Shown here: positions 1 through 64,000 of the stretch, one piece after another
Numbering within the stretch: position 1 is the stretch's first letter
How the letters are laid out: every line of letters starts with the position of its first letter
Assembly: GCA_041390625.1 (NCBI GenBank)
Contig: JAWKPM010000005.1
Span: 128,178 to 192,177 of the forward strand
Direction of reading: 5' to 3'
Length of the DNA stretch: 64,000 nt
Source of the DNA: Dehalococcoidia bacterium
GTDB taxonomy: Bacteria > Chloroflexota > Dehalococcoidia > UBA2979
Translations under genes and position numbers: made by a program
The notes under the pieces: model-generated
Told to the model about the DNA's origin: nothing
The model's input: only the letters and a program-made list of their open reading frames with translations
Databases searched by the model: none

Positions 1-226
1 TCGACTGTCGGTTCGTGGCACGGGAGCGACCTCGATCTAGACTGACGTCCGGCTCGTGTCGCCACGGCCGGAAGTCGAGGAGTGGTATGTATCCATCCTT
101 CGGGTTCGGACCGCAGGTACACAGTCAGGAAATCCCCTTGGGACCTTGGTCCCGGGCCCCAGTGTCAGGAATGCGTCAGTTTCGCCAGATTCAGGCGGCA
201 GGCTGGACTACCCGTAGGAGGATGCG

Positions 227-1282
227 GTGCGTGAGCTGAAGCTCGGGATCCTCGACCAGTCGCCGATCCGCAAGGGCGGCACGCCGCGCGAGGCGCTGCT
301 GGCGACCCTCGAGCTGGCGCAGGCCGCCGACCGCTTCGGCTACGAGCGCTACTGGCTCGCCGAGCACCACAACAGCGGCACGCTGGCGAGCGCGAGCCCG
401 GAGCTGCTGATCGGTCCGATCGCCGCCAGCACCTCGAGGATTCGCGTCGGCTCGGGCGGGGTCATGCTGACGCACTACTCCGCCCTCAAGGTGGCCGAGA
501 CGTTTCGGATGCTCGAGACGCTCTACCCCGGACGAATCGAGATGGGCCTCGGGCGGGCGCCGGGCAGCGACCAGCTCACGGCTCGCGCGCTGGCACACGG
601 GCCGGGTGCACTCCCCCTCGAGGCGTATCCCGACCAGGTGATGGACGTGCTTTCGTTTATGTCGAACGAGGTGCCGGACGATCACCCGTTCGCGGGTGTG
701 CGGGCGACGCCGACCGGTGACGCGATGCCCGTACCGTGGCTCCTCGGATCCGCGTACGACAGCGCCCGCTTCGCCGCGGAGCTCGGCCTCGGGTTCTCGT
801 TCGCGCAGTTCATCAGTCCGGACGGCGGCCAGCGCGTCGTGCGGGAGTACCGCGAGCAATTCCAGCCGTCGCCGTTCCTCGACAAGCCGCTCGTCAGCAT
901 CGGCGTGCACGCGCTGTGCGCCGACACGGACGAGGAGGCGCATCGCCTCGGGATGAGCCGTCACCTGATGCGGTTACGTCGAGCACAGGGGCGTCGCTCC
1001 GAGGGCGGCGTGCCCAGTCCCGAGGAGGCACTCGCGGTCGAGTTCAACGAGCCTGAGCTCGACTACATTCGCTACCAGCAGAGTCTCGCCCTCGAGGGCG
1101 GGCCGGAGCGCGTGCGGGAGGGCCTGCTCGCCATCGCCGACGAGTACGAGGTCGACGACGTGATTGTGCTGACGATCACGCACGACTACGCCGCGCGCCT
1201 GCGCTCGTACGAGCTGATCGCGGAGGCACTCGGGCTGGGCGAACGTGCGGCGGCTGCCCCACCGGAGGCCGGGGCCCGCTAG
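227..1282 (+). CDS. LLM-class flavin-dependent oxidoreductase (luciferase-like monooxygenase family)
   Basis: 351 aa. N-terminal region (LGILDQSPI...ALLATLELAQAADRFGYERYWLAEHH) is typical of MsnO8/LLM family. GTG start preceded by AGGAGGA SD. Confidence 0.8.
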   Translation: MRELKLGILDQSPIRKGGTPREALLATLELAQAADRFGYERYWLAEHHNSGTLASASPELLIGPIAASTSRIRVGSGGVMLTHYSALKVAETFRMLETLYPGRIEMGLGRAPGSDQLTARALAHGPGALPLEAYPDQVMDVLSFMSNEVPDDHPFAGVRATPTGDAMPVPWLLGSAYDSARFAAELGLGFSFAQFISPDGGQRVVREYREQFQPSPFLDKPLVSIGVHALCADTDEEAHRLGMSRHLMRLRRAQGRRSEGGVPSPEEALAVEFNEPELDYIRYQQSLALEGGPERVREGLLAIADEYEVDDVIVLTITHDYAARLRSYELIAEALGLGERAAAAPPEAGAR

Positions 1283-1391
1283 CCTGTAGGCACGATCCGA
1301 CGACCACGGCCGCGACGGCGGCCGAGACCCACACGAATGCACCGCGCAGGGACGCCGCCGGTGCGTCGCGCGACGTCTCGGGAGACACCTC

Positions 1392-3215
1392 GTGGAAACC
1401 GCCGCCGTTACCGCCCTCGGCGTGATCGGCTTCGCCGCCGCACTGTCCGGGATGGTCGCGCGCCGGCTGCGGCTGCCGGCAGTCCTGATCTACCTCGTGA
1501 TCGGCGCGATCGCCGGCCCTTCGCTCCTCGGCCTCACGGACCCGCACGAGATCGGCCCGATCTACGAGGTGTCGGTCGAGGTCCTCGTCGCCCTCATCGT
1601 CTTCGAGGGCGCGTTCTCCATCGATGTGACGTACCTGCAGCGTGTCGGACGCGTGGTGCGCAATCTTCTGACGCTGGGCATGGTGATCACGATCGTCCTC
1701 GCGACCGCGCTCGCCGGGGCGTTGGACGTCCTGCCGTGGCGGACGGCACTGCTCTTCGGGGCGCTGGTGAGCGTCACGGGACCGACGGTCATCCTTCCGC
1801 TGGTCCGTCGCGAGCACCTCACGGACCGCGTCTCGGCGGTGCTGCTCGCGGAAGGCATCCTCATCGACCCGCTGGGGGCGATCGCGGCGGTCGTCATCCT
1901 CGATTTCGTGCTGCCCGGCGTGGAGACCGAGCCGGTGGCATACGTCGTCAGTCGCCTCGCGGGCGGCCTCGCACTCGGCCTCGTTGGGATGCTCGTCGTG
2001 CGAGGGGTGCTGTGGATTCACCGCACGCCCACGGCGACCGACGTGACGCCCCTGCTGCTCGGCATCAGTGTCGCCACTTACGCCGCCGCCGAGCGCCTGA
2101 TCCCGGGGTCGGGCCTGACGGCGATGGCGACGCTCGGGGTGGCGCTGGCGGCGACGCCGGTTCCGCACGCCGAGGCCGTGCGCGGCTTCGAGGACGACCT
2201 CTCGCGGATCCTGATCGCGGCAGTGTTCATCCTCGCGACGGCCGCGGTCGAACTCGATACGGTGCGCATCCTCTGGCCGTGGGGCTTCCTGACGGTCATC
2301 GGGCTGATGGTGATCGTGCGGCCACTCGCGGTCTGGGTCTGTGCGATCGGGTCCGACCTGACCGCACGGGAGCGGCTGTACATCGGGCTGATCGGGCCTC
2401 GAGGCGTAGTGGCGGCCTCGCTGGCCGCGTTCGCCGGCGAGCGTCTACCGGACGACCTCGGCGGGGCGACACTCACGGCCCTCGTCTTCCTCACGGTGCT
2501 GCTCACCGTGGCCATACAGTCAACGTACGCCGGCTTGATGGCCGGCCTGCTGGAGGTACGAGCGATGCGTGCGCTGGTGGCAGGTGCGGGATCGGTGGGG
2601 AGCCGGCTGGCGACGAACTTGAGCGCGCGCGGCTTCGATGTCGTGCTCGCGGACTCGGATCCCGAGGTCGTCGAGCGCGCGCGTGCCGAGGGGTTGAACG
2701 TGACGGCCGGGGACGTGACCGATACGCGCTTCCTCGAGAAACTCGGCGCCGCCGAAGCTCGCATCGTCGTGGGTGCGACGGACAGCGACCAGGCGAACCT
2801 GCTCTTCAGCCAGTACGTCCTGTCGGTCGCGCCCGAGGCGGAGGCGTACGCTCGCGTCAGCCAGGTCCTCGCGGAGGACGCCTTCAAGCGGGCGGGCGTG
2901 CGCGTCATCTCCGAGACGGACGCCGTGACCGAGGCGATGCTGGAGTCGCTCGGTGCGCCCGTGCTCTACGACGCCTTCGCGCCCGGCGCCGGCGGGCGCA
3001 TGAGCATCGAGGTCGCAGTCGGCTCGGGTCTCTCGGGCCGTCTCGTGCGCGACCTGCGGCTGCCGCCGCAGGCGCTGCTGCTCCTCGTGCTGCGAGGCGA
3101 GCGCGAGATCGTCCCGAACGGCACGACACGCCTCGAGCGGGGGGATCGGCTCATCCTCTTCGGCCGGACGCAGGCCGTCGAGGAGGCGCGTTCGGTCCTC
3201 GTGTCCGTCGAGTAG
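1392..3215 (+). CDS. cation:proton antiporter (CPA family Na+/H+ or K+/H+ exchanger) with C-terminal RCK/TrkA-N and TrkA-C domains
   Basis: 607 aa. About 12 predicted TM helices at the N-terminus. Rossmann motif LVAGAGSVGSRLATNLSARGFDVVLAD in the C-terminal regulatory domain. Confidence 0.8.
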   Translation: METAAVTALGVIGFAAALSGMVARRLRLPAVLIYLVIGAIAGPSLLGLTDPHEIGPIYEVSVEVLVALIVFEGAFSIDVTYLQRVGRVVRNLLTLGMVITIVLATALAGALDVLPWRTALLFGALVSVTGPTVILPLVRREHLTDRVSAVLLAEGILIDPLGAIAAVVILDFVLPGVETEPVAYVVSRLAGGLALGLVGMLVVRGVLWIHRTPTATDVTPLLLGISVATYAAAERLIPGSGLTAMATLGVALAATPVPHAEAVRGFEDDLSRILIAAVFILATAAVELDTVRILWPWGFLTVIGLMVIVRPLAVWVCAIGSDLTARERLYIGLIGPRGVVAASLAAFAGERLPDDLGGATLTALVFLTVLLTVAIQSTYAGLMAGLLEVRAMRALVAGAGSVGSRLATNLSARGFDVVLADSDPEVVERARAEGLNVTAGDVTDTRFLEKLGAAEARIVVGATDSDQANLLFSQYVLSVAPEAEAYARVSQVLAEDAFKRAGVRVISETDAVTEAMLESLGAPVLYDAFAPGAGGRMSIEVAVGSGLSGRLVRDLRLPPQALLLLVLRGEREIVPNGTTRLERGDRLILFGRTQAVEEARSVLVSVE

Positions 3216-3302
3216 CACGAACGCGATGTATGTCGCGTTTCGGTGCGGTAGTCTGCGCACAGCGGCCGACCGGAGCCGCACGAGGCGGAGGCGGCAGGCA
3301 TC

Positions 3303-3809
3303 GTGCTGTCGAGACTGAAGCGCGCGCTCGACCCGCGGCGCGGCTATCCCTCGAACCCTCGCATCGACCGCGTGGCGCCGTGGCTGCTCATCGGGCCGGT
3401 GCTGCATCCGAGCGACTATCGCCAGCTCGCCAGCTTCGACGTGACGCACGTCGTCGATCTGCGCGCCGAGGACATCGATGACTCGGAGCGCCTGGGTGAG
3501 GCCGGCATCGTCTGGCACCACCTCCCCATCGAGGACCGCATGGCGCCGACGGTCGACTCGCTTGGCTCACTCCTCGAGTGGCTGAACGACGCACGAGAGT
3601 CGGCGGGCGACCGCATGACGCTGTACGTGCACTGCCAGGGTGGCGTTGGGCGCACGCCGACGGTGGCGACGGCCCTGCTGATGGCGACCGGGTTCTCGCT
3701 GCCGGACGCGATGCGCCTCGTGCGGGCGGCGCGACCGGAGTCAGCTCCGACCGAGGAGCAGCAGCAGTGGCTCGAGTCGCTGAGCTTCGACCAGGCGGAG
3801 TCCGCGTAG
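3303..3809 (+). CDS. dual-specificity / protein-tyrosine phosphatase family protein
   Basis: 168 aa. CX5R P-loop signature VHCQGGVGRT. Confidence 0.7.
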   Translation: MLSRLKRALDPRRGYPSNPRIDRVAPWLLIGPVLHPSDYRQLASFDVTHVVDLRAEDIDDSERLGEAGIVWHHLPIEDRMAPTVDSLGSLLEWLNDARESAGDRMTLYVHCQGGVGRTPTVATALLMATGFSLPDAMRLVRAARPESAPTEEQQQWLESLSFDQAESA

Positions 3810-4094
3810 CCGCGTTTCCTCGAGACATTCCCGGATAGGAACTGCGTTCGTCCTCGCGGACGCTCTTCACCGTGACGCCGAAGCACATCGGCGGGGTGGA
3901 GGTGGGGCCGTGGCGGCTCAACGACGCGGCTCGGACGACGGAGGCCTCGGAGACGACGGCGCTTTCGCGGCTAGTCGGGCGAGCGCGGCCCCGGGCGACG
4001 GCCTCGATGCTGCGCGGGGCGTGGGCTGGGGACTCCTCCTCGCAGTCGTGGGGTTCTGGGGTCCGATGCTCGCCCTGTGGCGGTGGCTGCACCG

Positions 4095-5465
4095 CTAACC
4101 GTGGGCGGCTCGATCGGCCGCGGCCGCAGCGAGCGCCTCGAGGAATCGCACGCGCCAGGCGTGGACGTCGTTCTCTTCGACCGTGCGGTGCATCGCGGCC
4201 CAGCGGCGGCGTCGCTCCTCGAGGGGCATCGCGAGGGCGGTCGTGATGGCCTCGGCAGTGGCATCGACGTCTCCGGCGGGCACCACGAGCGCCTCGGGCA
4301 GTTCCTCCACGGCGCCGCAACCGTCCGAGAGGATGAGGACACCCGGGTCGGCTTCGGGCTGCAGCGCGACGTACTCCTTCGCGACGAGGTTCATGCCGTC
4401 CGACAGCGACGTCACGAGGCAGACCTCGGCGTCGCGCATGCTGGCGGCCACCTCCTCGGGGGCACGCGTCGCCACCTCAAATTGGACGGCTCCCTCATCG
4501 AGGCGTGCGATGTCGGCGGCCAGCTCCTCGGAACGCGCGCGTTCAGCGTCGTAGGCGGGGATGCCGGCCCTCGATGGGGCGGCCCACTGCACCATCGCGA
4601 CGCGCTCGCCGAGCGTGCGGTCGGCGTGCAGCGCGCGGTCGAACGCCTCGAGGCGCAGCGGGATGCCCTTCGTGTAGTCGAGGCGATCGACACCGAGCAG
4701 GATGCGGCGGCCGCGGCGAAATGAACCGAACGCGTCGTCCGGATGTCGAGCCGCCGTCGCGCGAATGCGCGCGGGATCGATGGAGATCGGGTGCCCCTCG
4801 ACGAGCGGCGTGACGCCGTCCTCGGTGGCCGCCTCGATGTACGAGCGCAGGCGGTCGGCGTCGCGATGCGTCTGCATGCCGACGAGGTCGTACGCGCGCA
4901 TCGACGCGGCGATGTCGGATTCGTGCGGGATCTGGGCCCAGACCTCGGGAAGCGGGATCGGGATGTGGTGGAAGTACCCGAGCGGGCCGTCCCAGCCTCG
5001 GGCCCGCAGCTCGGCGCCGAGGGGCATGAAGTGGTAGTCGTGCACCCAGACGAGGTCGTCCTCCTGCAACTCGGCCATCAGCGCCTCGGCGAAGCGGACG
5101 TTTACGGCTCGCCACGTCGCGTACTGCGCGGGGTTGATCGAGGCGCGATCGGGAAAGCCGTGCATCAGCGGCCAGAGCGTCTGGTTGCAGAAGCCTTCGT
5201 AGTAGTCGCGGACCTGCTCCGGGGTGAGGTCGAGCGTGACGTACTCGACGCTACCGCGAACCTCGCGGACGCGCGGGCCCGGAGCATCACTCGCGCTGCC
5301 GCTCCAGCCGAGCCAGAGCCCGCCTTCGGCCTCGAGAGCGGGGAGCACGGCCGCCACGAGCCCGCCGGCCGCGCGCTCGGTCGAGGGCGGCGGCACGCGA
5401 TTCGAGATCGCAACGACGCGACGGCCTCGTTCCTGCGCCCCGTCGGCAGCTCGAACATCGGACAT
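4095..5465 (-). CDS. otsA: alpha,alpha-trehalose-phosphate synthase (UDP-forming), GT20 family
   Basis: 456 aa. Full-length similarity pattern to OtsA (ISNRVP..., LWLGWSG, DYHFMPLG, LGVDRLDYTKGI motifs). Confidence 0.9.
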   Translation of the reverse strand: MSDVRAADGAQERGRRVVAISNRVPPPSTERAAGGLVAAVLPALEAEGGLWLGWSGSASDAPGPRVREVRGSVEYVTLDLTPEQVRDYYEGFCNQTLWPLMHGFPDRASINPAQYATWRAVNVRFAEALMAELQEDDLVWVHDYHFMPLGAELRARGWDGPLGYFHHIPIPLPEVWAQIPHESDIAASMRAYDLVGMQTHRDADRLRSYIEAATEDGVTPLVEGHPISIDPARIRATAARHPDDAFGSFRRGRRILLGVDRLDYTKGIPLRLEAFDRALHADRTLGERVAMVQWAAPSRAGIPAYDAERARSEELAADIARLDEGAVQFEVATRAPEEVAASMRDAEVCLVTSLSDGMNLVAKEYVALQPEADPGVLILSDGCGAVEELPEALVVPAGDVDATAEAITTALAMPLEERRRRWAAMHRTVEENDVHAWRVRFLEALAAAAADRAAHG

Positions 5466-5563
5466 GCACCCTCCTCGGGGTCCCAGCGGGGCGACTCGCG
5501 ACCGGGGCTGGTAGGCTCGACGACTCAGAGCCTACCGCGTGATCCAGTCGGGACGGAGACGGC

Positions 5564-6475
5564 GTGACCTCCAACGACATGACGGCCGTGCTCGTCGCCG
5601 ACCTCGGCGGCACGCAGACGCGCGCGGCCGTCATCGATCGAGAAGGCACACTTCACTCGAGGGTGGCGCACCCGTCCTCGGAGGGTGATCCGTCGACGCT
5701 GACCTCGACGATGCGCGAGGCGCGTGAGGAGGCGGGACTCGACGTCTCCGGGGCGGTCGTGGGCGTGCCGGGCCCCGTCTCGTACATCGAGGGTCGTTCG
5801 CTGCGGCTGCCAAACCTGCCGCAGTGGGAAGGGCACGTCGCTGCCCAGGCGATCGCCGATGACCTCGGGCTCGCGGTGTTGTTGGCGAACGACGCCGACC
5901 TCGCGGCGCTGGGCGAGCACCGCTTCGGGGCGGGGCGCGACACCCTGGACATGGTGTACGTCACGATCAGCACGGGCGTCGGCGCGGGTGTCGTCCTCAA
6001 CGGGCGGCTGCTGCACGGACAGCGGTCGGTGGCCGAGATCGGACACACGCTCATCGACTTCGAGGGCGGTCGGACGGTCGAGGAGCTGGGGTCGGGAACG
6101 GCCCTCGAGGGTCTGACCGGCCTCGATGGCGCCGAGGTGACGCGTCGGGCCCAGGCGGGGGACGCCGACGCACTGGCGGCGTTCGCGCGCGTTACGAGCG
6201 CTTTCGCCGCCGGCGTGCTGAACCTCGTGATGCTCTACATGCCGCAGCGGGTCGTGATCGGCGGCGGCGTCTCTCAGGCCGGCACGCTGGTCCTCGACCC
6301 GGTGCGAGCACTCCTCGAGGAGCGCGGGCCCTCGATGGCGATCGTGCCGGAGGTCGTGCGGGCCTCGGGAGGGGACGACGTCGGATTGCTCGGCGGGCTC
6401 GCGCTATGGCTCGACCGGGACGCTGCCGAGGGCACGGAGCGCATCGAGGCGGCGCAGCCGCGACCTCGAGCCTGA
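5564..6475 (+). CDS. ROK family sugar kinase (glucokinase-like)
   Basis: 303 aa. N-terminal ATP-binding motif LVADLGGTQTRAAV and glycine-rich ISTGVGAGVVLNGRL typical of ROK/glucokinases. Confidence 0.8.
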   Translation: MTSNDMTAVLVADLGGTQTRAAVIDREGTLHSRVAHPSSEGDPSTLTSTMREAREEAGLDVSGAVVGVPGPVSYIEGRSLRLPNLPQWEGHVAAQAIADDLGLAVLLANDADLAALGEHRFGAGRDTLDMVYVTISTGVGAGVVLNGRLLHGQRSVAEIGHTLIDFEGGRTVEELGSGTALEGLTGLDGAEVTRRAQAGDADALAAFARVTSAFAAGVLNLVMLYMPQRVVIGGGVSQAGTLVLDPVRALLEERGPSMAIVPEVVRASGGDDVGLLGGLALWLDRDAAEGTERIEAAQPRPRA

Positions 6476-6490
6476 GCCAACCGCACCTCG

Positions 6491-7438
6491 ATGGACGACA
6501 CGCGCTCCCTCCTGATCGTTCGCAACCCACGCGCCCGCACCGCTCCGGCCGAGCACGAGCTGGTCGAGGCGAGCGCACCACTCTCGAAGGCGGGCTGGCA
6601 GGTCGACATCCGCACCACGGAGGCGCCGCACCACGCGGAGACGCTCGCGCGCGAGGCTGCTGATGCAGGCGTGCGGACCGTCGTGGCGTGCGGCGGCGAC
6701 GGGACCGTTCGCGAAGTCGCGTCTGGCCTCGTGGGGAGCGACACCGCACTCGCGGTCATGCGGGGCGGTACGGCGAACGTCTGGGCCCGGGAGATGGGCG
6801 TTCCGGATGGCGCACGGCCGGCGCTTGCGTGGATGGTGCGCGCGAAGCGCCATCGCGTGGACACGGGCCTCGCGCGCCTCGATGGCGGGGCCGGAGAGCG
6901 CTTCCTGCTGATGTGCAGCGTCGGGCTCGATGCCGCGGTGCTACGGGCGGTCGACGGCACCGGCAGCAAGAAGCGCCTCGGACGGGCCGCGTTCGCCTGG
7001 CCCGCGATGCGCGCGCTACGGACGGCCGCGCCGGTCGACGCGCTCATCGGCATCGACGGCGGGACGCCGGAGCGGCGCTCGCTCCTGCTGCTCGTTGCCG
7101 GGAACACGAGGTCGTACGGTGGCGTGCTTCGGCTGACGCCGGACGCGCTGATCAACGACGGTCGCCTCGATGTGAGCTCGTACTCGACGCGACCCGAGGG
7201 CGGGCGCGGCGCGCTCATCGGACGGGCGCTGTTCCGAGGGCTGCTGGGACGGTCCGGCGACGCGACCGGCATCGAGACCGCTCGAGGCGCCTCGATCCGC
7301 GTGGAGACCGCGGCCCCGCTGCCCGTGCAGGTCGACGGCGAGTACCTCGGGACCGCTCAGCGCCTCGAGATCGGGGTCGAGCCATCCTCGCTGGTTGCGC
7401 TCATTGGTCGGAGCGGTCGGACGCTGTTGCGGGGCTGA
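6491..7438 (+). CDS. diacylglycerol kinase catalytic-domain family lipid kinase (YegS/DagK-like)
   Basis: 315 aa. GGDGT motif (VVACGGDGTVREVA). 3' end overlaps GH15 gene convergently. Confidence 0.75.
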   Translation: MDDTRSLLIVRNPRARTAPAEHELVEASAPLSKAGWQVDIRTTEAPHHAETLAREAADAGVRTVVACGGDGTVREVASGLVGSDTALAVMRGGTANVWAREMGVPDGARPALAWMVRAKRHRVDTGLARLDGGAGERFLLMCSVGLDAAVLRAVDGTGSKKRLGRAAFAWPAMRALRTAAPVDALIGIDGGTPERRSLLLLVAGNTRSYGGVLRLTPDALINDGRLDVSSYSTRPEGGRGALIGRALFRGLLGRSGDATGIETARGASIRVETAAPLPVQVDGEYLGTAQRLEIGVEPSSLVALIGRSGRTLLRG

Positions 7439-9979: not shown

Positions 9980-9982
9980 GGG

Positions 9983-55700: not shown

Positions 55701-55704
55701 GAAA

Positions 55705-55740
55705 CGAATGAGCCGCCGGTTGCCCGGCGGCTCATTCGTG
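55705..55740. terminator. perfect 16-bp stem hairpin (ACGAATGAGCCGCCGG ttgc CCGGCGGCTCATTCGT) between convergent MFS and Lys/Ala-rich genes; candidate bidirectional terminator
   Basis: Read directly. Located 5 bp after the MFS stop and 18 bp after the minus-strand gene stop. Confidence 0.5.
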
Positions 55741-55757
55741 GTGTGACCGAGGTCGGA

Positions 55758-56430: not shown

Positions 56431-56856
56431 CTAGGGAAGCACGACGACGGCGTGCCCGGGGCAGGTGCCGTTGCCGTCCTGGTTGACGACGTTCATGTCG
56501 AGGTAGACGCGGTTCTCGCCGTCCTCGACCTTCTTCTCCGTGACCTTGCCAGTCACGGTGAGCACGTCGTTCTTCTGGTTGATGGCGCGGAACTGGACGC
56601 CGCACTCGCGGATCTCGGCCTCGTCGCCGATCCAGTCGCGGAGGGCGTTCAGCATGTAGGTGTAGCGCAGGTTGCCCATGCCGAAGGCACCCTGCTCGTT
56701 GAGGGCGGCCTTGCCGGCCTCGTCGTCCATGTGGATGTAGACGAACTCGTCGTTGACGGCCGCGTAGCGGTTCCAGTTCATGAAGTCGGTCTGGCGCGAC
56801 CAGGCCGGGATCTCGTCGCCGACGTTCACGTCCGCGAACTTCACGTTGACTGCCAT
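56431..56856 (-). CDS. MaoC-like (R)-specific enoyl-CoA hydratase / hotdog dehydratase (HadB-like)
   Basis: 141 aa. MaoC dehydratase pattern. Confidence 0.8.
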   Translation of the reverse strand: MAVNVKFADVNVGDEIPAWSRQTDFMNWNRYAAVNDEFVYIHMDDEAGKAALNEQGAFGMGNLRYTYMLNALRDWIGDEAEIRECGVQFRAINQKNDVLTVTGKVTEKKVEDGENRVYLDMNVVNQDGNGTCPGHAVVVLP

Positions 56857-56896
56857 GTCGTTCCTCCTGTGCTCGAGCCTCGCGGGCGCGAGCGGC

Positions 56897-57391
56897 CTAG
56901 TAGCGGATGCCGGTGGAGATGCGCGTCTTGACGTGCTCGCCGCGCTGGTTGCGCCACTCCGTCTCGGTGTTGGTGAAGAGCGTGAGGCCGAGGCGCGTGG
57001 TGCGCTCGTTCCAGTCCTTCAGTCGCGTGCGCGCGGTGATGACGTCACCGGCGCGAATCGGCACGCCGAAGGTCTCCACCTGGCCGCCGTTCATGCCTCG
57101 AGTGCCGGGGCCGGCGCCGGCGGCCGTGGCGCGGCCAGCGGCGGGCGCGGGGCGGTCGATGGGCCAGGCGAAGGGGTTGAAGTCGTTGGGGGCGATGATG
57201 CCGCCCCACTTGGTGCCCTTGGCGTAGGCCTCGTCCCAGAAGACCTGGGGCGGCTTCTCGGGCCAGTAGGAGGCGATGGCCCACTTGCGGATGTCGGACT
57301 CGGAGACGGGCGGAGCGACGCGCTCGTCGCGCCAAACGCCCTTCTCGGCCTCCATCTCCTTGGTGACGAGTGTTTCGAGCTCAGATGTCAT
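56897..57391 (-). CDS. MaoC-family N-terminal-type hotdog protein (HadA-like non-catalytic partner)
   Basis: 164 aa. Immediately upstream of MaoC dehydratase gene, as in HadAB-type heterodimers. Confidence 0.7.
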   Translation of the reverse strand: MTSELETLVTKEMEAEKGVWRDERVAPPVSESDIRKWAIASYWPEKPPQVFWDEAYAKGTKWGGIIAPNDFNPFAWPIDRPAPAAGRATAAGAGPGTRGMNGGQVETFGVPIRAGDVITARTRLKDWNERTTRLGLTLFTNTETEWRNQRGEHVKTRISTGIRY

Positions 57392-57592
57392 GCGGCTGCC
57401 ACCCCCTTTGAGAATGCTCCGTCCTTGCTCGGGTCGTCGTGACGGGCAGCGGAACTATAACAGTCGCAAGCAAGGGCCGGGCGCGCGCCTCGAGGCCCGG
57501 CGGTGCCGAGTGGAAACGAGGGCAAACCCTCAGTCGTCGAGCGCTTTCGACGCCTCGAGCGGTGGTAGGGTACTCACCAATCGAGGCGAGCC

Positions 57593-59248
57593 ATGGCACC
57601 CGGCCGTCTACCTTCGCGCGACTACATGGATCCGGCCCCGCCTCGACGAGGGCGTGACTACATGTCCGCGCCGGCCTCGAATGGTGCCTCGGCATCTAAC
57701 GGCGCGCATCCCCCAGCCAACGGCAACGGCACGTCCAACGGCGCCTCCAACAACAACGGATACTCGAACGGGAACGGCACCTCGAACGGCGCCACGCGCG
57801 AGGTCGTGAGCCGACGCCTGCCGCCTCGACGGCTGGCCGCCCGCCGCGCCTCGACGAACGGCAACGGCACGGTGGCGCTCTCGCCGCCCTCGGTGGTGGC
57901 GCCCGAGACGGCAGCGGTGCCCGCCCTCGGTGACGGCAACGGCCGAGGTGGCGGCGCGCCGACGGCACCACTCGTCGCGACCGGCGGCGGCCCGCCCGGA
58001 CGGCGGAAGGCGTCGCTGGCGGACGTCTTCGTCTCGTTCCGCGAGCGCGACTTCCGCTACCTCGCGCTGTCGACCCTCGCGGTCGGGTTCGGGCAGTGGG
58101 CGCAGCAGATCGGGCTGTTCTGGCTGGTGCTGGAGCTGACGGGGTCCTCGGCGCAGCTGGGGTTCATCGCGGCGTTCCGAGGCGGCGTGGGAACACTCAT
58201 CGCGCCGATCGGCGGCGTGCTGGCGGACCGCTACTCACGGCGCCTGATCATGGTGTGGTCGACGATCGCCGGCGCACTCCTCGCGGGCGTGCTCGCGGCC
58301 CTTGTGGTGACCGACCTCATCCACGTGTGGCATGCGTACGCCTTCGCGCTGGCCGGCGGCATCCTGCAGTCGATCAACCAGCCGACGCGCCAGGCGTTCG
58401 TGTACGACGTCTCCACGGACGAGACGCTGCCGAACGCGATCGCGATGAACTCGGTGGTGCAGAACGTCTCGCGCGTGACGGGCCCGCCGCTGACCGGCGC
58501 GATGATCGGCTTCCTGGGCGTGGCCTCGCCGTTCATCTTCATCGTAGTGGTCCAGGTGATCGCCTCGGTGATGACGCTGCTGATCAGCCACAACACGAGG
58601 CAGGTGAAGCTGCGCGGGGGCGCGAACCCGTTCCGCCAAATCGGCGAAGGCTTCAAGTACACGTGGCAGGACAAGCGGATCCTCGGACTGGTGATCGTGA
58701 GCGCGATCCCCGCCCTGCTCGTCTACCCGTACATCCCGTTCCTGGCGGTGATCTCCGAGGAAGTGCTCGGGCGCGGAGCGCAGGGCTTCGGGTTCCTCGC
58801 CTCGATGCTCGGGTGGGGCTCGATCGTCGGGCTCATGCTGCTGGCGACGATGGGACCGCGTCTGACCTCGGGCCGCGTGATGCTGTTCTGCTTCACGATC
58901 TACTCGGCGATGCTCATCGGCTTCTCGTGGTCGACGGTGTACCCGCTGTCCCTCGGCATCCTCGCGGTGGCCGGCATCTTCCACTCGATCGGCATGGCGC
59001 TGACCAACACGCTGATCCAGATGGCCGTGCGCAACGAGCTGCGTGGCCGCGTGATGGCGGTGTGGCAGATGACGAACGGCCTGCAGCCGCTCGGATCGGC
59101 GCCGATGGGGCTGCTAGTCGCGGCCGCCGGCCCGTCGATCGGCATCGGCTCGTTCATGATCGCGGCCACGGTGCTGTTCGTGCTGTTCACGGCGACGTGG
59201 GGCTCGGTGCGTCGGATGAAGCCGGCGGTCGGCGCCGCCACCGTCTGA
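57593..59248 (+). CDS. MFS transporter with about 140-aa Asn/Gly/Ser-rich N-terminal low-complexity extension
   Basis: 551 aa. SNGASASNGAHPPANGNGTSNGASNNNGYSNGNGTSNGA then the usual RERDFRYLALSTLAVGFGQWA MFS N-terminus and 12 TM helices. Confidence 0.7.
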   Translation: MAPGRLPSRDYMDPAPPRRGRDYMSAPASNGASASNGAHPPANGNGTSNGASNNNGYSNGNGTSNGATREVVSRRLPPRRLAARRASTNGNGTVALSPPSVVAPETAAVPALGDGNGRGGGAPTAPLVATGGGPPGRRKASLADVFVSFRERDFRYLALSTLAVGFGQWAQQIGLFWLVLELTGSSAQLGFIAAFRGGVGTLIAPIGGVLADRYSRRLIMVWSTIAGALLAGVLAALVVTDLIHVWHAYAFALAGGILQSINQPTRQAFVYDVSTDETLPNAIAMNSVVQNVSRVTGPPLTGAMIGFLGVASPFIFIVVVQVIASVMTLLISHNTRQVKLRGGANPFRQIGEGFKYTWQDKRILGLVIVSAIPALLVYPYIPFLAVISEEVLGRGAQGFGFLASMLGWGSIVGLMLLATMGPRLTSGRVMLFCFTIYSAMLIGFSWSTVYPLSLGILAVAGIFHSIGMALTNTLIQMAVRNELRGRVMAVWQMTNGLQPLGSAPMGLLVAAAGPSIGIGSFMIAATVLFVLFTATWGSVRRMKPAVGAATV

Positions 59249-59309
59249 CCTCGACCCTTCCGATGCCCTATCGTCCCGGCCTCGACCACACGAGGCAGGA
59301 GGGGCAGCC

Positions 59310-59747
59310 GTGCCAGACGACACCATCGAGACCCTTGAGCGGAACGCCTCGACCCTCGAGGCGCTGCGCGTGCTGGCGGCCTCGGTGTCGGATGACGACC
59401 TCGAGCAGTCGCTCGGCGGGGGATGGGTGGTGGCGACGGCGTTCGCACACCTCGCGTTCTGGGACCGGCGGCAGGCGCTGACGATTCGCCGCTACCTCGA
59501 GACGGGCGCGTTCATCGAGGAGGACGAGACGGTCAACCCGAGCATCGAGCCGCTGCTGCTGGCGCTCCCGCCTCGTCGGGCGGTCGAGCTGGCACTCGGC
59601 GCGGGCGAGCTGGTGAACGAGGTGGTCGCGGGCCTCGAAGAGGCGCCGCTGGCCGCGATCGAGGCGAGCGCGCACGCGTACCTCGCGCGGCGGTGGGCGC
59701 ATCGCGAGGAGCACATGGCACAGATCGAGGCCGGGCTGGGGCGCTGA
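59310..59747 (+). CDS. DinB/YfiT-like (DinB_2 / MDMPI N-terminal-like) putative metal-dependent protein
   Basis: 145 aa. His in helix 1 (AHLAFWDRR) and C-terminal HREEHMAQIE pattern. Confidence 0.55.
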   Translation: MPDDTIETLERNASTLEALRVLAASVSDDDLEQSLGGGWVVATAFAHLAFWDRRQALTIRRYLETGAFIEEDETVNPSIEPLLLALPPRRAVELALGAGELVNEVVAGLEEAPLAAIEASAHAYLARRWAHREEHMAQIEAGLGR

Positions 59748-59800
59748 CGCCCGGGCCTGCTGCTCACAGGGCCACCGAGGCAGGCTGATATGCTCGGGCC

Positions 59801-60463
59801 ATGCTGACACATCTGATCGCGCATCCCGGCGGGAACGAGCCGCTGCCGACGGTGCTGGCGCTGCACGGGCACGGCGCGCACGGGCAGGACCTGATCGGGC
59901 TGGCGCCGCACCTTGCGGGTGGGCGCACGCTGTGGATCTGCCCGCAGGCGGAGTTCCCGGTGGAGCCGGGTTTCTACGGCTTCACCTGGTTCGAGCGGGA
60001 CGCGAACGGACAGCGCGCCTCGAGCGAGCCGGAGCGCACCCTCGGGGTGCTGCGCGAGTTCATCGATGAGGCGTTCGAGCGCTACCCGGTGGACCGCGAG
60101 CGGGTGGTGCTGCTGGGGTTCAGCCAGGGCGGGATGCTGGCGTACCGCATCGCGCTATCGGAGCCTCGGCGGTTCAAGGGGCTGGCCGCGCTCAGCACAA
60201 CGCTGTCCGAGGAGATGGCGGCGGGCCTCGTCCTGGGCGAGGGCGCCTCGGAGCTGCCGGTGCTCGTCCAGCACGGCCTCGATGACCCGATGATCACGAT
60301 CGACCGCGCGCGCGAGACACGCGACCGCCTGGAGGCACTGGGACTCGACGCCGAGTACCACGAGTACTCGATGGGGCACGCGATCGGGCAGGAGAGCGCG
60401 CTCGACCTCAATCGCTGGCTCGAGTCGGTGCTCGGGCTCGGCGCCAGCGCGGGGCTCGTCTAG
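59801..60463 (+). CDS. phospholipase/carboxylesterase family alpha/beta hydrolase
   Basis: 220 aa. Nucleophile GFSQGG. C-terminal His in HEYSMGHAIG. Confidence 0.75.
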   Translation: MLTHLIAHPGGNEPLPTVLALHGHGAHGQDLIGLAPHLAGGRTLWICPQAEFPVEPGFYGFTWFERDANGQRASSEPERTLGVLREFIDEAFERYPVDRERVVLLGFSQGGMLAYRIALSEPRRFKGLAALSTTLSEEMAAGLVLGEGASELPVLVQHGLDDPMITIDRARETRDRLEALGLDAEYHEYSMGHAIGQESALDLNRWLESVLGLGASAGLV

Positions 60464-60480
60464 CCGCGTCGGTTCTGCCC

Positions 60481-61320
60481 CTACGACCTCGATGCGGCGA
60501 GCTGCTCGGCGAGCTGAGCCATGTGCTCGGCGTCGTGGAACTTCGGCTGGCGCTTCTCGCCGAAGGCGCGCACGGCCTCGCGCGCCTCGACCGACTGCAG
60601 CGAGGCCGAGAAGCGCTCGGCCGAGCGCTTCTGGATGACGTTGAAGTCGTGCTCGAGCAGGTCCTTCCAGACGAGCTCCTTGATCTGGCGCAGGGACGAC
60701 TGCGGCTTCTCGGCGATCTCCTGGGCCAGCGTGATCGCCTCGGGCAGCAACTCATCTGGCTCGACGACGCGACGGACGAGGCCGAAGTCCTGGGCCTCGG
60801 CGGCGGTATAGATGCGGCCGGTCAGGAACATCTCCTTGGCGCGGTGGAGGCCGACGATCTTCGGCAGGAGCCACGTGCTGTGGATCTCCGGCGTGAGGCC
60901 CAGCGCCGCGAAGCGGGCCGAGAAGCGTGCCTCGGTCGAGGCGATGAGCACATCGAAGTTCAGCGGCCCGGTGAAGCCCATCCCGATCGCGAAGCCGTTG
61001 ATGGCGCCGATGATCGGCTTGCACTCCGCGAGGAAGTGCGGGTCGAAGGCATGCCTCGAGGCCGGGCGCTCCGGCGCGGGCGCCGACTCGCCGGACTGGC
61101 GTCGCGCGAAGCCGCCCATGTCGGCGCCCGAGGAGTAGGCGCGGCCGCGGCCCGTGCTGACGATGGCACCGACCTCGGGGTCGGCGTTGGCGGCCTCGAG
61201 GGCCTCGACCCACTCTCGAGTCATCGTGGTGCTGAAGGAGTTCAGCTGCTCGGGGCGGTTGAATGCGATCACCTCGACGCGTCCGTGTCGCTCGACCTCG
61301 ATCGCCTCGTATTGCGTCAT
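60481..61320 (-). CDS. enoyl-CoA hydratase/isomerase (crotonase) family protein
   Basis: Start set at MTQYEAIEVERHGRVEVIAFNRPEQLN (279 aa). Crotonase fold. Confidence 0.8.
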   Translation of the reverse strand: MTQYEAIEVERHGRVEVIAFNRPEQLNSFSTTMTREWVEALEAANADPEVGAIVSTGRGRAYSSGADMGGFARRQSGESAPAPERPASRHAFDPHFLAECKPIIGAINGFAIGMGFTGPLNFDVLIASTEARFSARFAALGLTPEIHSTWLLPKIVGLHRAKEMFLTGRIYTAAEAQDFGLVRRVVEPDELLPEAITLAQEIAEKPQSSLRQIKELVWKDLLEHDFNVIQKRSAERFSASLQSVEAREAVRAFGEKRQPKFHDAEHMAQLAEQLAASRS

Positions 61321-61527
61321 CCCCGGCCATCCTTCCGCGCGAGCACGCTCATCGAGGCCCGCGCGGCGCGAGTATAACGCCGCGCCCCGAGGCGCGAGTT
61401 CCTTCCGAGCCAATACGGGTGGTGTAGAATCCGGCCGCTTGCGCGCCTCGTCTCCGATTCGAAGGAGGTTCGCGCGGGCCTCGATGTGCGTATGGGCCTC
61501 GAAGCAGGCATGTGAAGGGGGTGTCGA

Positions 61528-62478
61528 TTGGGAGCACTCGACGGACGGTCGGTCGTGGTGACCGGCGGCGGGCGGGGCATCGGACGGGCGATCGCGCTGC
61601 TGGCAGCGGCCGAGGGCGCCTCGGTGGTCGTGGCGGACACGGGCGCCGAGGCTGACGGCACGGGCGCGAACCCGGCCATCGCCGACGCGGTGGTAGAGCA
61701 GATCAAAGCCTCCGGCGGCAATGCCGTCGCGACGCACTCTGACGTCTCCCTCCTCGAGGGTGGGGAAGAGCCGATCAAAGCGGCGCTTGAGGCCTTCGGG
61801 AAGATCGACGGGTTGGTGAACGCGGCCGGCATTCGACGCGACACGCCGATCTGGGAAATGACTGAAGAGGACTGGGACGTCGTCATTCGCGGGAACGTGA
61901 AGGCGCAGTTCGTCCCGAGCAAGTTCGCCTCGATTGCGATGCGGCAGAACCGCTACGGGCGCATCGTGAGCCTGATCAACGACGCGGGCCTCGGTGCCGT
62001 GGGCGCCTCGAACTTCGCCGCGGCGGGCGAGGGCGCGCTGGGCTTCAACCGCACGCTCGCTCGCGACCTCGGGCGGTACGGGGTGACGGCGAACGCGATC
62101 TCACCGCTGGCGCGGACGCGCATGTTCGGTGGGTACTCGGAGGACCTGCGGCCGCCGGCGGGCGTGCTGAGCGCGAACGACGTGGCGCGTATCGGCCGGC
62201 CAACGCCCATGTTCCAGTGGGAGGACACCGGGCACCCGGACGACCCGGAGAGCGTGGCACCGCTGGCGGTGTACCTGCTGTCCGAGGGCGCGGGCGACAT
62301 CAACGGCCAGTGCTTCGGCGTGCGAGGCGGGGACATCTACCTGTACTCGAACCCGACCATCGACCGGCAGATCCTCTCCTACGGCCGTCGCTTCACGATG
62401 GACGAGATGGACGAGCAGATGCCCCGCACGCTGGCGCTCGGGGTGCCGAGCCCGGTGGAGGCCGCACACCACCACTAG
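61528..62478 (+). CDS. SDR family oxidoreductase
   Basis: 316 aa. TGGGRGIGRAIA cofactor motif. Extended C-terminus. Confidence 0.8.
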   Translation: MGALDGRSVVVTGGGRGIGRAIALLAAAEGASVVVADTGAEADGTGANPAIADAVVEQIKASGGNAVATHSDVSLLEGGEEPIKAALEAFGKIDGLVNAAGIRRDTPIWEMTEEDWDVVIRGNVKAQFVPSKFASIAMRQNRYGRIVSLINDAGLGAVGASNFAAAGEGALGFNRTLARDLGRYGVTANAISPLARTRMFGGYSEDLRPPAGVLSANDVARIGRPTPMFQWEDTGHPDDPESVAPLAVYLLSEGAGDINGQCFGVRGGDIYLYSNPTIDRQILSYGRRFTMDEMDEQMPRTLALGVPSPVEAAHHH

Positions 62479-62518
62479 TCGCGAGCCTCAACCGCTTCAA
62501 GCAGAAGGAGATCGAGCA

Positions 62519-63481
62519 ATGGGCAACCGTCTGGAAGGACGCGTGGCGCTGATCACGGGCTCGGGTCGCGGCATCGGCCGCGGCATCGCGCAGCTGATGG
62601 CCGAAGAAGGCGCCGCCGTCATCGTGAACGACTTCGGTGGGAACCTCGACGGGTCGGGCGGCGAGCAGACGCCCGCGCAGGAAGTCGTCGACGGCATCAA
62701 GGCCGCCGGCGGCCGGGCGAGCGCGAACTACGGCGACGTGTCGAAGTTCGAGGACGCACGGGCGATGGTGCAGCAGGCCGTGGACGAGTACGGGCGCCTC
62801 GACATCCTGTGTCACGTGGCAGGCATCCTGCGCGACCGCATGGTGTTCAACATGACCGAGGAGGAGTGGGACGCCGTGCTGGCGGTCCACCTCAAGGGCG
62901 CGTTCAACACGGTGCGGCACGCCGTGGAGCCGATGATCCGGCAGCGCTACGGGCGCATCCTGGTGTTCTCCTCGGGGTCGGGCCTCGGCTCGTCCGGGCA
63001 GGCGAACTACAGCGCAGCCAAGGAGGGCATGGTCGGCTTCGCGCGCTCGCTGGCGCGTGAGCTGGGGCCGTACGGCATCGCGGTGAACGCCATCTACCCC
63101 GGTGGCGCGACGCGCATGACGGCCTCGGTGCCGTCGGCGTCCCGCGAGCTGCGGGCCCGCGCCGGGATCACGAGCGGTGGCGCGCCGCGTGCGCCGCAGC
63201 AGAACTTCTCGGATATCGATGCCGCGATCGGGACGCCTCGAGACCCGGGCAACAACGCACCGCCGGTGACGTGGCTGTGCTCGGAGGCCGGCGGGGTGAT
63301 CTCCGGCCAGGTGATCGGGACGTCGGGCTGGCAGGCGTCGCGCTACTCGCCTCGACAGGCGATCCGGAGCATCTCGTCGCCTCGACGCTGGTCGGTCGAG
63401 GACCTCCAGGACGTGGTGCCGAACCAGCTGACCGTGGGGGTGAACAACCCCGCGCCGATGGTGCAGCCCAAGGAGAGTTAG
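62519..63481 (+). CDS. SDR family oxidoreductase
   Basis: 320 aa. TGSGRGIGRGIA. YxxxK (YSAAK). Paralogous to upstream SDR. SD AGGAG before ATG. Confidence 0.8.
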   Translation: MGNRLEGRVALITGSGRGIGRGIAQLMAEEGAAVIVNDFGGNLDGSGGEQTPAQEVVDGIKAAGGRASANYGDVSKFEDARAMVQQAVDEYGRLDILCHVAGILRDRMVFNMTEEEWDAVLAVHLKGAFNTVRHAVEPMIRQRYGRILVFSSGSGLGSSGQANYSAAKEGMVGFARSLARELGPYGIAVNAIYPGGATRMTASVPSASRELRARAGITSGGAPRAPQQNFSDIDAAIGTPRDPGNNAPPVTWLCSEAGGVISGQVIGTSGWQASRYSPRQAIRSISSPRRWSVEDLQDVVPNQLTVGVNNPAPMVQPKES

Positions 63482-63623
63482 CGACCGGCCTCGATGGTGG
63501 ATTCGCGACGGGGCCGCTCGATGGGCCGCCCCGTTTCGATCTCTCTTGCGTGTCGGTTCGGTGGCTCGCCGGACCGGTCGTCCGCTCCAGGTGGCGCGAT
63601 TGAGCCGCGGTAGACTGCGCCAC

Positions 63624-63986
63624 ATGGATGCGGGCGATCTCGAGCGGCTGCGGGCGCTGTGCCTCGATCTGCCGGGCGCCTCGGAGCGATTGAGCCACGG
63701 CGAGCCGACGTGGTTCGCCGGCAAGCGCGTGTTCGTGATGCTCTCCGATCACCATCACGACGAGCGCGTGGCGTTCTGGTGCGCGGCGCCGCCGGGCGCG
63801 CAGGAGGCGCTGATCGAGGAGGCGCCGGAGCGCTTCTTCCGCCCGCCGTACGTGGGACATCGAGGGTGGGTGGGCGTCTACCTCGATGTAGACGTCGACT
63901 GGGACGAGGCCGCCGACCTCATCGAGGAGTCGTACCGCCTCGTGGCGACGAAGCGGCTGCTGGCGGAACTCGACGCGCGAGCGTGA
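63624..63986 (+). CDS. MmcQ/YjbR family DNA-binding protein
   Basis: Start set at MDAGDLERLRALCLDLPGA. PYVGHRGWVGVYLDVDVDWDE...ESYRLVATKR is the YjbR signature. Confidence 0.6.
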   Translation: MDAGDLERLRALCLDLPGASERLSHGEPTWFAGKRVFVMLSDHHHDERVAFWCAAPPGAQEALIEEAPERFFRPPYVGHRGWVGVYLDVDVDWDEAADLIEESYRLVATKRLLAELDARA

Positions 63987-64000
63987 CGACCGCGGCCGAA

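Follow-up and report, generated by a model that had tools for sequence, protein, structure and literature searches.

The 64,000 bp stretch analyzed here (positions 128,178–192,177 of contig JAWKPM010000005.1 from a Dehalococcoidia bacterium, hereafter "the window") carries a family of short words built on the hexamer CCTCGA. The expansion of this family is lineage-specific, takes place at the DNA level and is essentially strand-symmetric. The core of the family is CCTCGA or, in a looser definition, CCTCG with A or G as the next base; among its octamer forms CCTCGATG is the most frequent. The palindrome CCTCGAGG, of which CCTCGATG is the commonest one-off variant, is the doubled form of the core hexamer. 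A first-pass annotation of the window had singled out CCTCGATG as a strand-biased word with a density and polarity resembling those of Chi sites, of FtsK-orienting polar sequences (KOPS) or of DNA uptake sequences.

CCTCGATG was the top-ranked 8-mer of the window by frequency, with 85 copies on the + strand (one per 0.75 kb) and 32 on the − strand, a total of 1.83 per kilobase. Dinucleotide-preserving shuffles gave 5.2 copies when the two strands were added, and never more than 13, and base composition predicted approximately one copy per strand, as the first-pass annotation had estimated. The excess that it described was borne out, but its counts had to be corrected: there were 85 copies rather than approximately 79 on the + strand, and 32 rather than 15–20 of the reverse complement, which brings the skew to 73% instead of approximately 80–84%. 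A following G, given as the most frequent continuation, was present at only 33 of the 85 + strand copies. Nearly all the single-base variants of the octamer were present in 13 copies or fewer, the exceptions being CCTCGAGG (63 copies), CCTCGACG (43:13), CCTCGGTG (42:10) and CCTCGAAG (19:14). The four CCTCGANG variants, for which a pure codon bias would give equal enrichment, were unequally represented on the + strand (T 85, G 63, C 43 and A 19).

The reading frames were as previously described. In genes of the − strand, 28 of the 35 copies were in the C-ATC-GAG-G frame (Ile-Glu), while in genes of the + strand 16 copies encoded Leu-Asp with the GAT codon and 13 encoded Ser-Met. The proposed comparison of Asp codons inside and outside the motif showed that GAT represented 50% of them in the NTC_G context and 14.5% elsewhere. 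The reported noncoding enrichment also held, with 2.6 copies per kilobase in noncoding DNA against 1.7 in coding DNA.

The excess could not be reduced to codon usage. When the protein and the codon usage of each gene were kept in synonymous shuffles, 65:27 copies (+ and − strand) were observed in coding DNA for 26:12 expected, an excess of 2.2–2.5-fold, with an observed/expected ratio (O/E) of 2.48 on the + strand and 2.18 on the − strand. Stricter shuffles, keeping the next base of each codon or the next amino acid, lowered the O/E to 2.30 and 2.09 in the first case and to 1.85 and 1.80 in the second. The sharpest situation was that of sense copies in + strand genes, where 30 were observed and 3.7 were expected from the synonymous shuffles. 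CCTCGA itself was enriched in every reading frame and in both orientations, and its density of approximately 5 per kilobase on the + strand and 3 on the − strand was nearly equal in + strand genes, − strand genes and noncoding DNA. Comparison of orthologues showed that sites were built through rare codons, Pro-Arg being written as CCT-CGA and His-Arg as CAT-CGA. Among the Shine-Dalgarno-like GAGG elements upstream of genes, 8 of 20 were TCGAGG in the window and none of 8 in an outgroup locus, L084 (see below). The claim of a DNA-level excess rather than a codon effect was therefore supported by the codon-aware shuffles, by the presence in all frames and in noncoding DNA, and by the sister lineages.

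The distances between copies of CCTCGATG and their counts per bin were Poisson-like in the 64 kb, apart from the 3-nt coding periodicity. Four pairs on the + strand were exactly 18 bp apart (16967/16985, 23789/23807, 32503/32521 and 54116/54134), for approximately 0.1 expected, and two + strand pairs were spaced by 33 bp. In the wider CCTCGA family the 18 bp excess was marginal (9 against approximately 2.6 per in-phase distance), and an organization into arrays or with periodic spacing was rejected. Of the four clusters previously listed, that at 32495–32640 contained three TCGATG copies and not five, and the other three were as described. Repeat elements of the repetitive extragenic palindrome (REP) or miniature inverted-repeat transposable element (MITE) type were also rejected, since the flanks of all 117 copies were unrelated; most copies lay inside ordinary conserved genes. 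A literature search on the raw motif returned primer sequences only.

Lineage distribution and core of the word family

Relatives were ordered by the identity of their transketolase (tkt). The ingroup consisted of the window, L083 (87% identity) and L081/L082 (76%), and the outgroups were the five loci L084, L206, L207, L208 and L209 (68%), which include syntenic loci at equal GC. Three unrelated genomes with a GC content of 69–71% (L018, L074 and L080), from contigs with transketolases at most 57% identical, were used as controls. In a species-representative genome collection scanned for transketolase nothing closer than 57% identity was found, and a metagenome scan for CCTCGATG-N10-CCTCGATG gave chance pairs from assorted organisms, none of them ingroup-like.

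CCTCGATG was present at 1.4–1.8 copies per kilobase in the window, L083 and L081. In L083 and L081/L082 the densities were 1.54 and 1.41 per kilobase, the rank among 8-mers was 3–4 and CCTCGA reached approximately 8 per kilobase. The corresponding values in the 68% relatives were 0.17–0.45 per kilobase for CCTCGATG and 1.2–4.4 for CCTCGA, and those in the unrelated genomes were 0.14–0.32 (rank approximately 240–1500) and 2–3. The contrast was marked in noncoding DNA, with 8.0 CCTCGA per kilobase in the window and 9.1 in L081 against 1.15 in the outgroup locus L084. Amino acid composition and dipeptide O/E were alike in ingroup and outgroup (1.88, 1.64 and 1.83 for Ile-Glu), so the difference between them lies in the DNA. 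The expansion arose between 68% and 76% transketolase identity.

The word family and a strong GC skew appeared at one and the same node, a correlation that rests on eight loci. The absolute skew was 0.06–0.10 in the ingroup loci, at most 0.05 in the 68% relatives, of which four out of five did not exceed 0.012 in the syntenic region, and approximately 0.02 in the unrelated genomes. This coincident onset may point to altered replication or repair machinery at the node. A difference in gene structure marks the same node. The ingroup has separate genes, with a 4 bp overlap, for transaldolase (368 aa) and for glucose-6-phosphate isomerase (524 aa) (window positions 12449–15126), and all five 68% relatives (L084 and L206–L209) have a single fused TAL_FSA+PGI gene of 875–880 aa. 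Among the latter, L207 (ERZ28669026 contig_4) had 4.4 CCTCGA per kilobase and 10 CCTCGAGG in 22 kb, with a GC skew close to zero; LigD-type ligase and primase genes adjoin its tkt. L207 may serve as an intermediate step from which to date the expansion and to separate the word family from the skew.

The octamer is not the informative unit, as a Markov model of order 5, which holds the hexamers, predicted 70 of the 85 + strand copies, and the maximal-order test suggested in the first-pass annotation gave an O/E of only 1.06 (85 observed, 80.1 expected; 80 of 85 at order 6). The ingroup/outgroup ratio increased with the word, from 2.0 for CCTC to 2.5 for CCTCG, 3.8 for CCTCGA, 6.2 for CCTCGAG, 6.6 for CCTCGATG and 11.9 for CCTCGAGG, the last roughly what squaring the half-site value of 3.8 would give. 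The ratio fell to approximately 1 once positions 1–5 were altered or when position 6 was C, and enrichment over the outgroups needs CCTCG and then A or G. In the codon-aware ranking the first places at every word length were occupied by words containing CCTCG: GCCTCG (282 observed, 123 expected), CCTCGA (273 and 132), CCTCGG, GCCTCGA (134 and 49) and CGCCTCGA, with CCTCGATG approximately ninth among the 8-mers (65 and 26). The flanks of the motif carried little information.

With 63 copies, CCTCGAGG was the most abundant 8 bp palindrome of the window, the next one having 33. Base composition predicted 2.6 copies (a 24-fold excess) and an order-2 Markov model 14.7 (4.3-fold), and the density was 1.03 per kilobase in the ingroup against 0.13 in the outgroups. 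The one-off variant, with 117 CCTCGATG/CATCGAGG sites, outnumbered the palindrome. A degenerate palindrome C(C/A)TCGA(G/T)G was considered and rejected, as CATCGATG was weakly enriched and the signal followed the CCTCGA half-site.

Several compositional causes were also rejected. A gene-orientation effect is excluded by the balance of coding DNA between the strands (23.7 and 26.3 kb in a first gene set, and approximately 27 kb per strand once Pfam-supported genes had been added), and a generic high-GC codon effect by 80 unrelated loci together with the five sister loci. In the window GGAGG and CCTCC were depleted while CGAGG and CCTCG were raised. A codon-junction rule (avoidance of G|G and C|C junctions, preference for C|G), combined with avoidance of the Shine-Dalgarno-like GGAGG, was rejected as the whole cause because of the 1.8–2.3-fold excess that remained under the next-base and next-amino-acid nulls, the strand symmetry and the presence in noncoding DNA.

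Other words were avoided. G-runs and pentamers resembling the Shine-Dalgarno sequence or its complement were depleted beyond the codon expectation throughout the window, as illustrated by GGGGGG (10 observed, 74 expected) and CCTCCG (9 and 47). The O/E of sense GGAGG was 0.40–0.56 in the ingroup against 0.82 in the outgroup, with total GAGG at expectation. CCGCGG, a SacII-type site, was found 32 times for 85 expected from the codon-aware null (0.72 per kilobase in the ingroup, 1.58 in the outgroup), and words containing TGGCCA were nearly absent from the ingroup (CTGGCCA 4 against 32, GCTGGCCA 0 against 15). The avoidance of CCGCGG and TGGCCA suggests a restriction-modification pressure.

Strand polarity and base composition

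The window has a GC content of 70.5% and a GC skew that is positive throughout, at approximately +0.10, the + strand being the G-rich one. The fraction of CCTCGATG on this strand was 0.73. Markov models predicted fractions of 0.47–0.49 at orders 0–1 and of 0.63, 0.68 and 0.73 at orders 2, 3 and 4, respectively, and the observed skew was significant against the order 0–1 models only. In L081 the codon-aware O/E was 2.75 on one strand and 2.98 on the other, with a strand fraction of 0.52 for 0.54 expected and an overall skew of 0.54–0.58. Over the same orthologous 18 kb the distribution was 27:4 in the window, where the GC skew was +0.093, and 14:12 in L081, where it was +0.046. The view of CCTCGATG as a discrete polar signal of the Chi or KOPS kind was not supported by these comparisons: the O/E was equal on both strands, orders 2–4 predicted the skew and the relative was close to parity. 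That the polarity of the octamer is background is well supported; for the core the same is probable, although not proven.

The location of the asymmetry within the word was visible. CCTC and GAGG were strand-neutral (850:789), and in coding DNA CCTCC was distributed 46:133. The asymmetry entered at the next, freely varying position, with CCTC-G on the G-rich strand and more CCTC-C on the other. At third codon positions, where the skew was very strong, the frequencies of G and C on the + strand were 0.50 and 0.40 in + strand genes, and 0.60 and 0.31 in − strand genes. In noncoding DNA CCTCGATG was distributed 19:5, and in short intergenic stretches CCTCGA was found at 42:14; the fraction predicted by an order-2 model built on the noncoding sequence was 0.78, a value that is partly circular and comes from a small sample. 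The asymmetry of the window as a whole was illustrated by GGG:CCC at 2.6:1 and GGGG:CCCC at 4.2:1.

Some G-rich words were extremely skewed, namely GGTGGCG (65:5), TGGCGG (119:12), GTGGCGG (53:4) and GCGGGGCG (21:0). As candidates for KOPS or for architecture imparting sequences (AIMS) they were set aside, since the codon-aware null predicted their counts on the G-rich strand almost completely (54:7 expected for GGTGGCG and 93:22 for TGGCGG), leaving an approximately two-fold extra depletion on the other strand. Within the CCTCGA family, the most extreme strand ratio was that of the 10-mer GCCTCGATGG, with 20 copies on the + strand and none on the − strand, which would fit the addition of G-rich flanks on the G-rich strand.

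A strand-symmetric word and a compositional skew can together mimic a polar octamer. Before Chi or KOPS candidates are called in metagenome-assembled genomes, controls with codon-aware nulls and with sister lineages are therefore needed.

Turnover of sites and rival explanations

Whether HIP1, the highly iterated palindrome of cyanobacteria, owes its abundance to a methyltransferase-linked bias in repair (Elhai 2015, PMC4390886) or to selection (Xu et al. 2018, PMC5861425) is debated. We applied the criterion of the latter authors, according to which conserved sites indicate selection and unconserved sites a replenishment by a neutral process, for example biased repair. The 8-mer sites were conserved no more than control words (5/13 against 0.34, and 6/35 against 0.18), which for the octamer would, by this criterion, speak for replenishment and not for selection on the individual sites. 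We infer that the process which maintains the family acts on the overall density of the word rather than site by site.

We propose, with doubt and confidence in equal parts, that the window shows a HIP-like, strand-symmetric expansion of the CCTCGA family, maintained either by selection on word density or by a drive at the DNA level, with a strand ratio derived from the skew superimposed on it. One uncultured lineage of the Chloroflexota, annotated as Dehalococcoidia, has spread the family over both strands, all frames and intergenic DNA, at the price of rare codons (CCT-CGA, CAT-CGA and GAT) and of occasional conservative changes such as Val to Ile. Our best guess for the process is a sequence-directed bias of mismatch or damage repair that would time and again turn near-matches into the full core, a molecular drive like that proposed for HIP1; a weak selection for high word density would have nearly the same appearance. 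The excess on the + strand would be a second, independent layer, due to the strong replication-type skew of G over C at free positions. The fixed CCTC/GAGG part is strand-neutral, and the flexible positions (...G-A-T/G-G) would drift to G or T on the G-rich strand and yield CCTCGATG, the other strand then carrying words of the CATCGAGG and CCTCC type.

Several observations weigh against this proposal. After the codon-aware null the core kept a modest excess on the G-rich strand, both in the window (2.09 against 1.53 for CCTCGA and 2.30 against 1.40 for GCCTCG) and in L081 (2.05 against 1.78), and the intergenic 42:14 distribution of CCTCGA points in the same direction. The explanation of the polarity by composition relies on low-order models that partly hold the sub-words of the motif itself. 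The core hexamer was somewhat more conserved than composition-matched words (0.67 against 0.42, and 0.39 against 0.24), which could correspond to weak site-level selection or to parallel gains, and a codon inside/outside control had a mixed outcome. A depletion of substrates of the Vsr type, sought as the trace of a repair drive, was absent among the one-mutation neighbors of the core (ratios of 0.8–2.4). Among the gene products of the 64 kb there was neither a DNA methyltransferase nor a Vsr-like or other DNA enzyme with sequence specificity, and the methyltransferase domains are of the small-molecule or rRNA type only. Finally, the ingroup data come from one syntenic region in three genomes.

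A broader and more tentative view, which we hold to be possible, is that CCTCGA and CCTCGAGG form a genome-wide DNA "password" of the lineage, read by a DNA-processing system of its own. The reader could be a methylation-guided repair system, an enzyme of the AddAB/RecBCD type or a DNA-uptake receptor, and drive or selection would have multiplied the word until it stood at approximately one site per 120 bp, alongside the gain of an unusually strong replication strand asymmetry.

Among more specific explanations, a Chi-like hotspot would be read as single-stranded DNA, in the form of CCTCGATG or of CCTCGA/GCCTCG, by a helicase-nuclease of the RecBCD/AddAB type, and be selected for density and for co-orientation with replication. 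This is unlikely. It would agree with the excess beyond the codon-aware nulls and the top rank of GCCTCG and CCTCGA (the type of statistic used for Chi prediction), with the lineage specificity, with the enrichment in all frames and in noncoding DNA and with the residual excess of the core on the G-rich strand, and the raw skew of 73% toward that strand is like the over-representation and skew of Chi (PMC3384302). Against it stand the equal excess of the 8-mer on both strands in two genomes, the lack of polarity of the 76% relative in the same region, a skew predicted by composition at orders 2–4 and the fact that the most lineage-specific word is a palindrome, which is incapable of polarity. 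Genes for RecBCD/AddAB, FtsK or competence were not found among the window genes; 64 kb is not decisive here and cannot settle the content of the genome. A KOPS-like role, or one like that of the SpoIIIE recognition sequences (SRS), has next to no probability in our view. The 0.73 skew does differ significantly from the 0.49 expected at Markov order 1, the model used for KOPS (PMC3384302), and the frequency is far above the minimum of one per 40 kb, but the skew within the window is under the genome-wide values of approximately 0.79–0.91 of known KOPS and is explained by orders 2–4 and by the codon-aware null, the word is approximately 15 times denser than known KOPS (one per 0.75 kb against approximately one per 12 kb), it is not polar in L081, and other words such as GGTGGCG and TGGCGG are far more skewed while being themselves explained by the null. 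An artefact due solely to codons, dipeptides or gene orientation in a high-GC genome, deriving the word from Ile-Glu (ATC-GAG) and Leu-Glu (CTC-GAG), is refuted as a complete explanation and very improbable. In its favor are the frame shared by the 28 copies in − strand genes, a 1.9-fold over-representation of the Ile-Glu dipeptide and a codon-aware null that already accounts for 38 copies in coding DNA and reproduces the strand ratio. It is contradicted by the 2–2.5-fold excess that persists under synonymous shuffles (1.8–2.3-fold under the stricter nulls), the enriched noncoding DNA and off-frames, the outgroups without excess at equal GC, amino acid and dipeptide usage, the recruitment of rare codons and the balanced gene orientation.

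Two explanations place the function in the word itself on both strands. A structural role of the kind proposed for HIP1, with sites for an abundant nucleoid- or chromosome-organizing protein or methylation-dependent marks, would make CCTCGAGG the target and CCTCGATG a tolerated variant. The rank of CCTCGAGG as first 8 bp palindrome at approximately one per kilobase (24 times base composition and 8 times the outgroups), the conservation of the core hexamer above matched control words and the strand-symmetric enrichment would suit it. We find it quite unlikely, considering that CCTCGATG (117) outnumbers the palindrome (63), that independent half-sites explain the palindrome ratio (3.8 squared, approximately 11.9), that the 8-mers have no excess conservation, that the spacing is Poisson-like within the 64 kb and that no cognate methyltransferase was found in the window. 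An uptake-like or self-recognition signal, by which a competence or recombination machine preferring word-bearing DNA would produce a molecular drive on both strands, is improbable too. Descriptions of natural competence in the Dehalococcoidia-type group are not known to us, and no competence gene was seen in the window. Known uptake sequences are 9–12 nt long, and an information content limited to approximately 6 nt (the order-5 model predicting 70 of 85 copies) is short by comparison; inverted, terminator-like pairs are rare, with three within 60 bp. The density of approximately 1–2 per kilobase, the strand symmetry after background correction, the coding copies obtained at the cost of rare codons and Val to Ile changes, the elevated one-off variants, the turnover of sites and the lineage specificity would all be expected from such a signal. 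A preprint on HIP1 (10.1101/2024.09.10.611283) reports that transformation can become more efficient through a hyper-abundant palindrome.

Sites, gene setting and resemblance to known systems

The window encodes mostly metabolic functions (a tkt-rpiB-tal-pgi-gnd-zwf-pgl cluster, trehalose genes, acyl-CoA dehydrogenases and transporters), as well as an Lhr helicase and MpaB. Neither tRNA genes nor Rfam matches were found in the 64 kb. The sites are listed in Table 1.

Table 1. Positions of the CCTCGA-family words in the window and of selected local arrangements.
Feature	Positions	Strand	Details
CCTCGATG, 85 copies	4002..63888	+ (G-rich strand)	starts in the next three lines
CCTCGATG, starts	4002–22023	+	4002, 4569, 4832, 6121, 6330, 6486, 6877, 7165, 7766, 11685, 13057, 13126, 14574, 15015, 15423, 15803, 16055, 16967, 16985, 17917, 18283, 18799, 19034, 19552, 20149, 20663, 20709, 21540, 21980, 22023
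CCTCGATG, starts	23789–39817	+	23789, 23807, 24263, 24875, 24991, 25743, 25979, 26504, 26605, 27257, 27750, 29053, 30000, 30406, 30462, 31926, 32503, 32521, 33520, 33977, 34836, 37224, 37421, 37883, 38359, 38696, 38812, 39463, 39499, 39601, 39817
CCTCGATG, starts	40752–63881	+	40752, 41515, 42740, 43545, 43913, 44177, 44381, 45429, 46246, 46646, 47108, 49213, 49246, 51217, 51724, 54083, 54116, 54134, 58800, 60277, 60487, 61479, 63489, 63881
CCTCGATG on −, read as CATCGAGG on +, 32 copies	3005..63927	−	starts: 3005, 3527, 4496, 5785, 6442, 9484, 14130, 16637, 24034, 26363, 26831, 26903, 27500, 28990, 30435, 31699, 36036, 36909, 37773, 44306, 46502, 46664, 50337, 50358, 50886, 53403, 54059, 55001, 59513, 61350, 63858, 63920
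Palindrome CCTCGAGG, 63 copies	432..61759	both	two overlapping CCTCGA half-sites; starts include 432, 616, 1090, 2397, 4136 ... 61054, 61194, 61752
Core field CCTCGA/TCGAGG	1..64000	both	324 on +, 212 on −; approximately 1 per 120 bp
Copy at the start of a DAGK-family gene (6491–7438)	6486..6493	+	ATG of the copy is the start codon
Two copies in the transketolase gene (− strand)	16967..16992	+	18 bp apart; read IEDQTDIE
Two copies at the MpaB N-terminus	23789..23814	+	18 bp apart; read T-S-M-F-D-K-A-S-M
Two copies in the 5' region of an acyl-CoA dehydrogenase gene (− strand)	32503..32528	+	
Inverted pair CCTCGATG-N10-CATCGAGG	46646..46671	both	hairpin-capable; in uncalled region (open reading frame 46458–48365)
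Three copies in a small HMA-like gene (− strand)	54083..54141	+	spacings 33 and 18 bp

At positions 650 and 668 of tkt the window encodes Ile-Glu (CATCGAGG), and the orthologous codons in L081 and L084 are Val-Glu (CGTCGAGG), so these two sites were created by Val to Ile changes, that is C to T on the + strand. Both candidate ATG starts of MpaB fall inside copies of the motif, and the L081 orthologue is without this stretch. At the acyl-CoA dehydrogenase gene the proximal GAGG occupies a Shine-Dalgarno position (CATCGAGGAGGCTCCACCC ATG). Inverted pairs, + then − within 60 bp, occurred only three times in the whole window and are therefore not a general feature. The region of the hairpin-capable pair, 46437–47884, has a long open reading frame (ORF) on the − strand (46458–48365, 635 aa) with an atypical GC content at the three codon positions (0.77/0.61/0.76) and no Pfam match. 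Elsewhere, a LysE-type translocator was split over two ORFs of the − strand (42423–42737 and 42789–43094), the first matching the C-terminal half and the second the N-terminal half of the Pfam model; a frameshift or interruption of the gene, or an error of assembly, is the probable cause.

Short words of very high abundance, among them HIP1, Chi and the uptake sequences, are rare and informative marks of repair, recombination or uptake machinery. To our knowledge HIP1 is still unexplained after 30 years. On the reading that we prefer, a HIP-like expansion with a superimposed skew, the CCTCGA family would be a second, independent example of the HIP type, in an uncultured Chloroflexota lineage; if the "password" view were true, it would be the first signal of the HIP, Chi or uptake type described in Chloroflexota. 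The sharp onset (absent at 68%, present at 76% transketolase identity) and the intermediate L207 provide a comparative handle on genes gained or lost at the node, and the family may serve as a marker for binning or for the lineage.

The closest resemblance is with HIP1 (GCGATCGC) and the alternate cyanobacterial palindromes, which are also short GC-rich words at approximately one per kilobase, in all frames and in noncoding DNA, and lineage-specific. In both cases an 8 bp palindrome is the most abundant palindromic octamer, CCTCGAGG in the window, one-off variants are elevated as well, and the same debate opposes biased repair and selection. The phylum and the sequence are different. The 24-fold excess over base composition is at the low end of the 15–300-fold of HIP1, which was calculated with a different expectation model. 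The non-palindromic CCTCGATG outnumbers the palindrome here, the information being in a 6-nt half-site, HIP1 sites are preferentially conserved whereas the present 8-mer sites are not, and no cognate methyltransferase was found in the 64 kb. With Chi the family shares the character of a short, species-specific, over-represented word, independent of frame in genes and commoner on what is presumed to be the leading strand, but its codon-aware excess is equal on both strands, its polarity is not common to a close relative and it includes a palindrome. The uptake signal sequences (USS) and DNA uptake sequences (DUS) are similar in their density of approximately one per kilobase, in the presence of both orientations, in being tolerated in coding DNA at a cost to the protein, in their elevated variants and in their lineage "dialects", and differ from the present family, whose core is only approximately 6 nt and which has few inverted pairs at gene ends. 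KOPS are expected to show a skew of approximately 0.79 or more over the genome and of 0.9 or more close to dif, with a frequency of one per 10–40 kb, and in E. coli and B. subtilis they are approximately 15 times sparser than CCTCGATG here (PMC3384302). The octamer shares with KOPS, SRS and AIMS its greater frequency on the G-rich strand, and differs from them in being much denser, less skewed and C-rich instead of G-rich, with a skew that is explained by the background.

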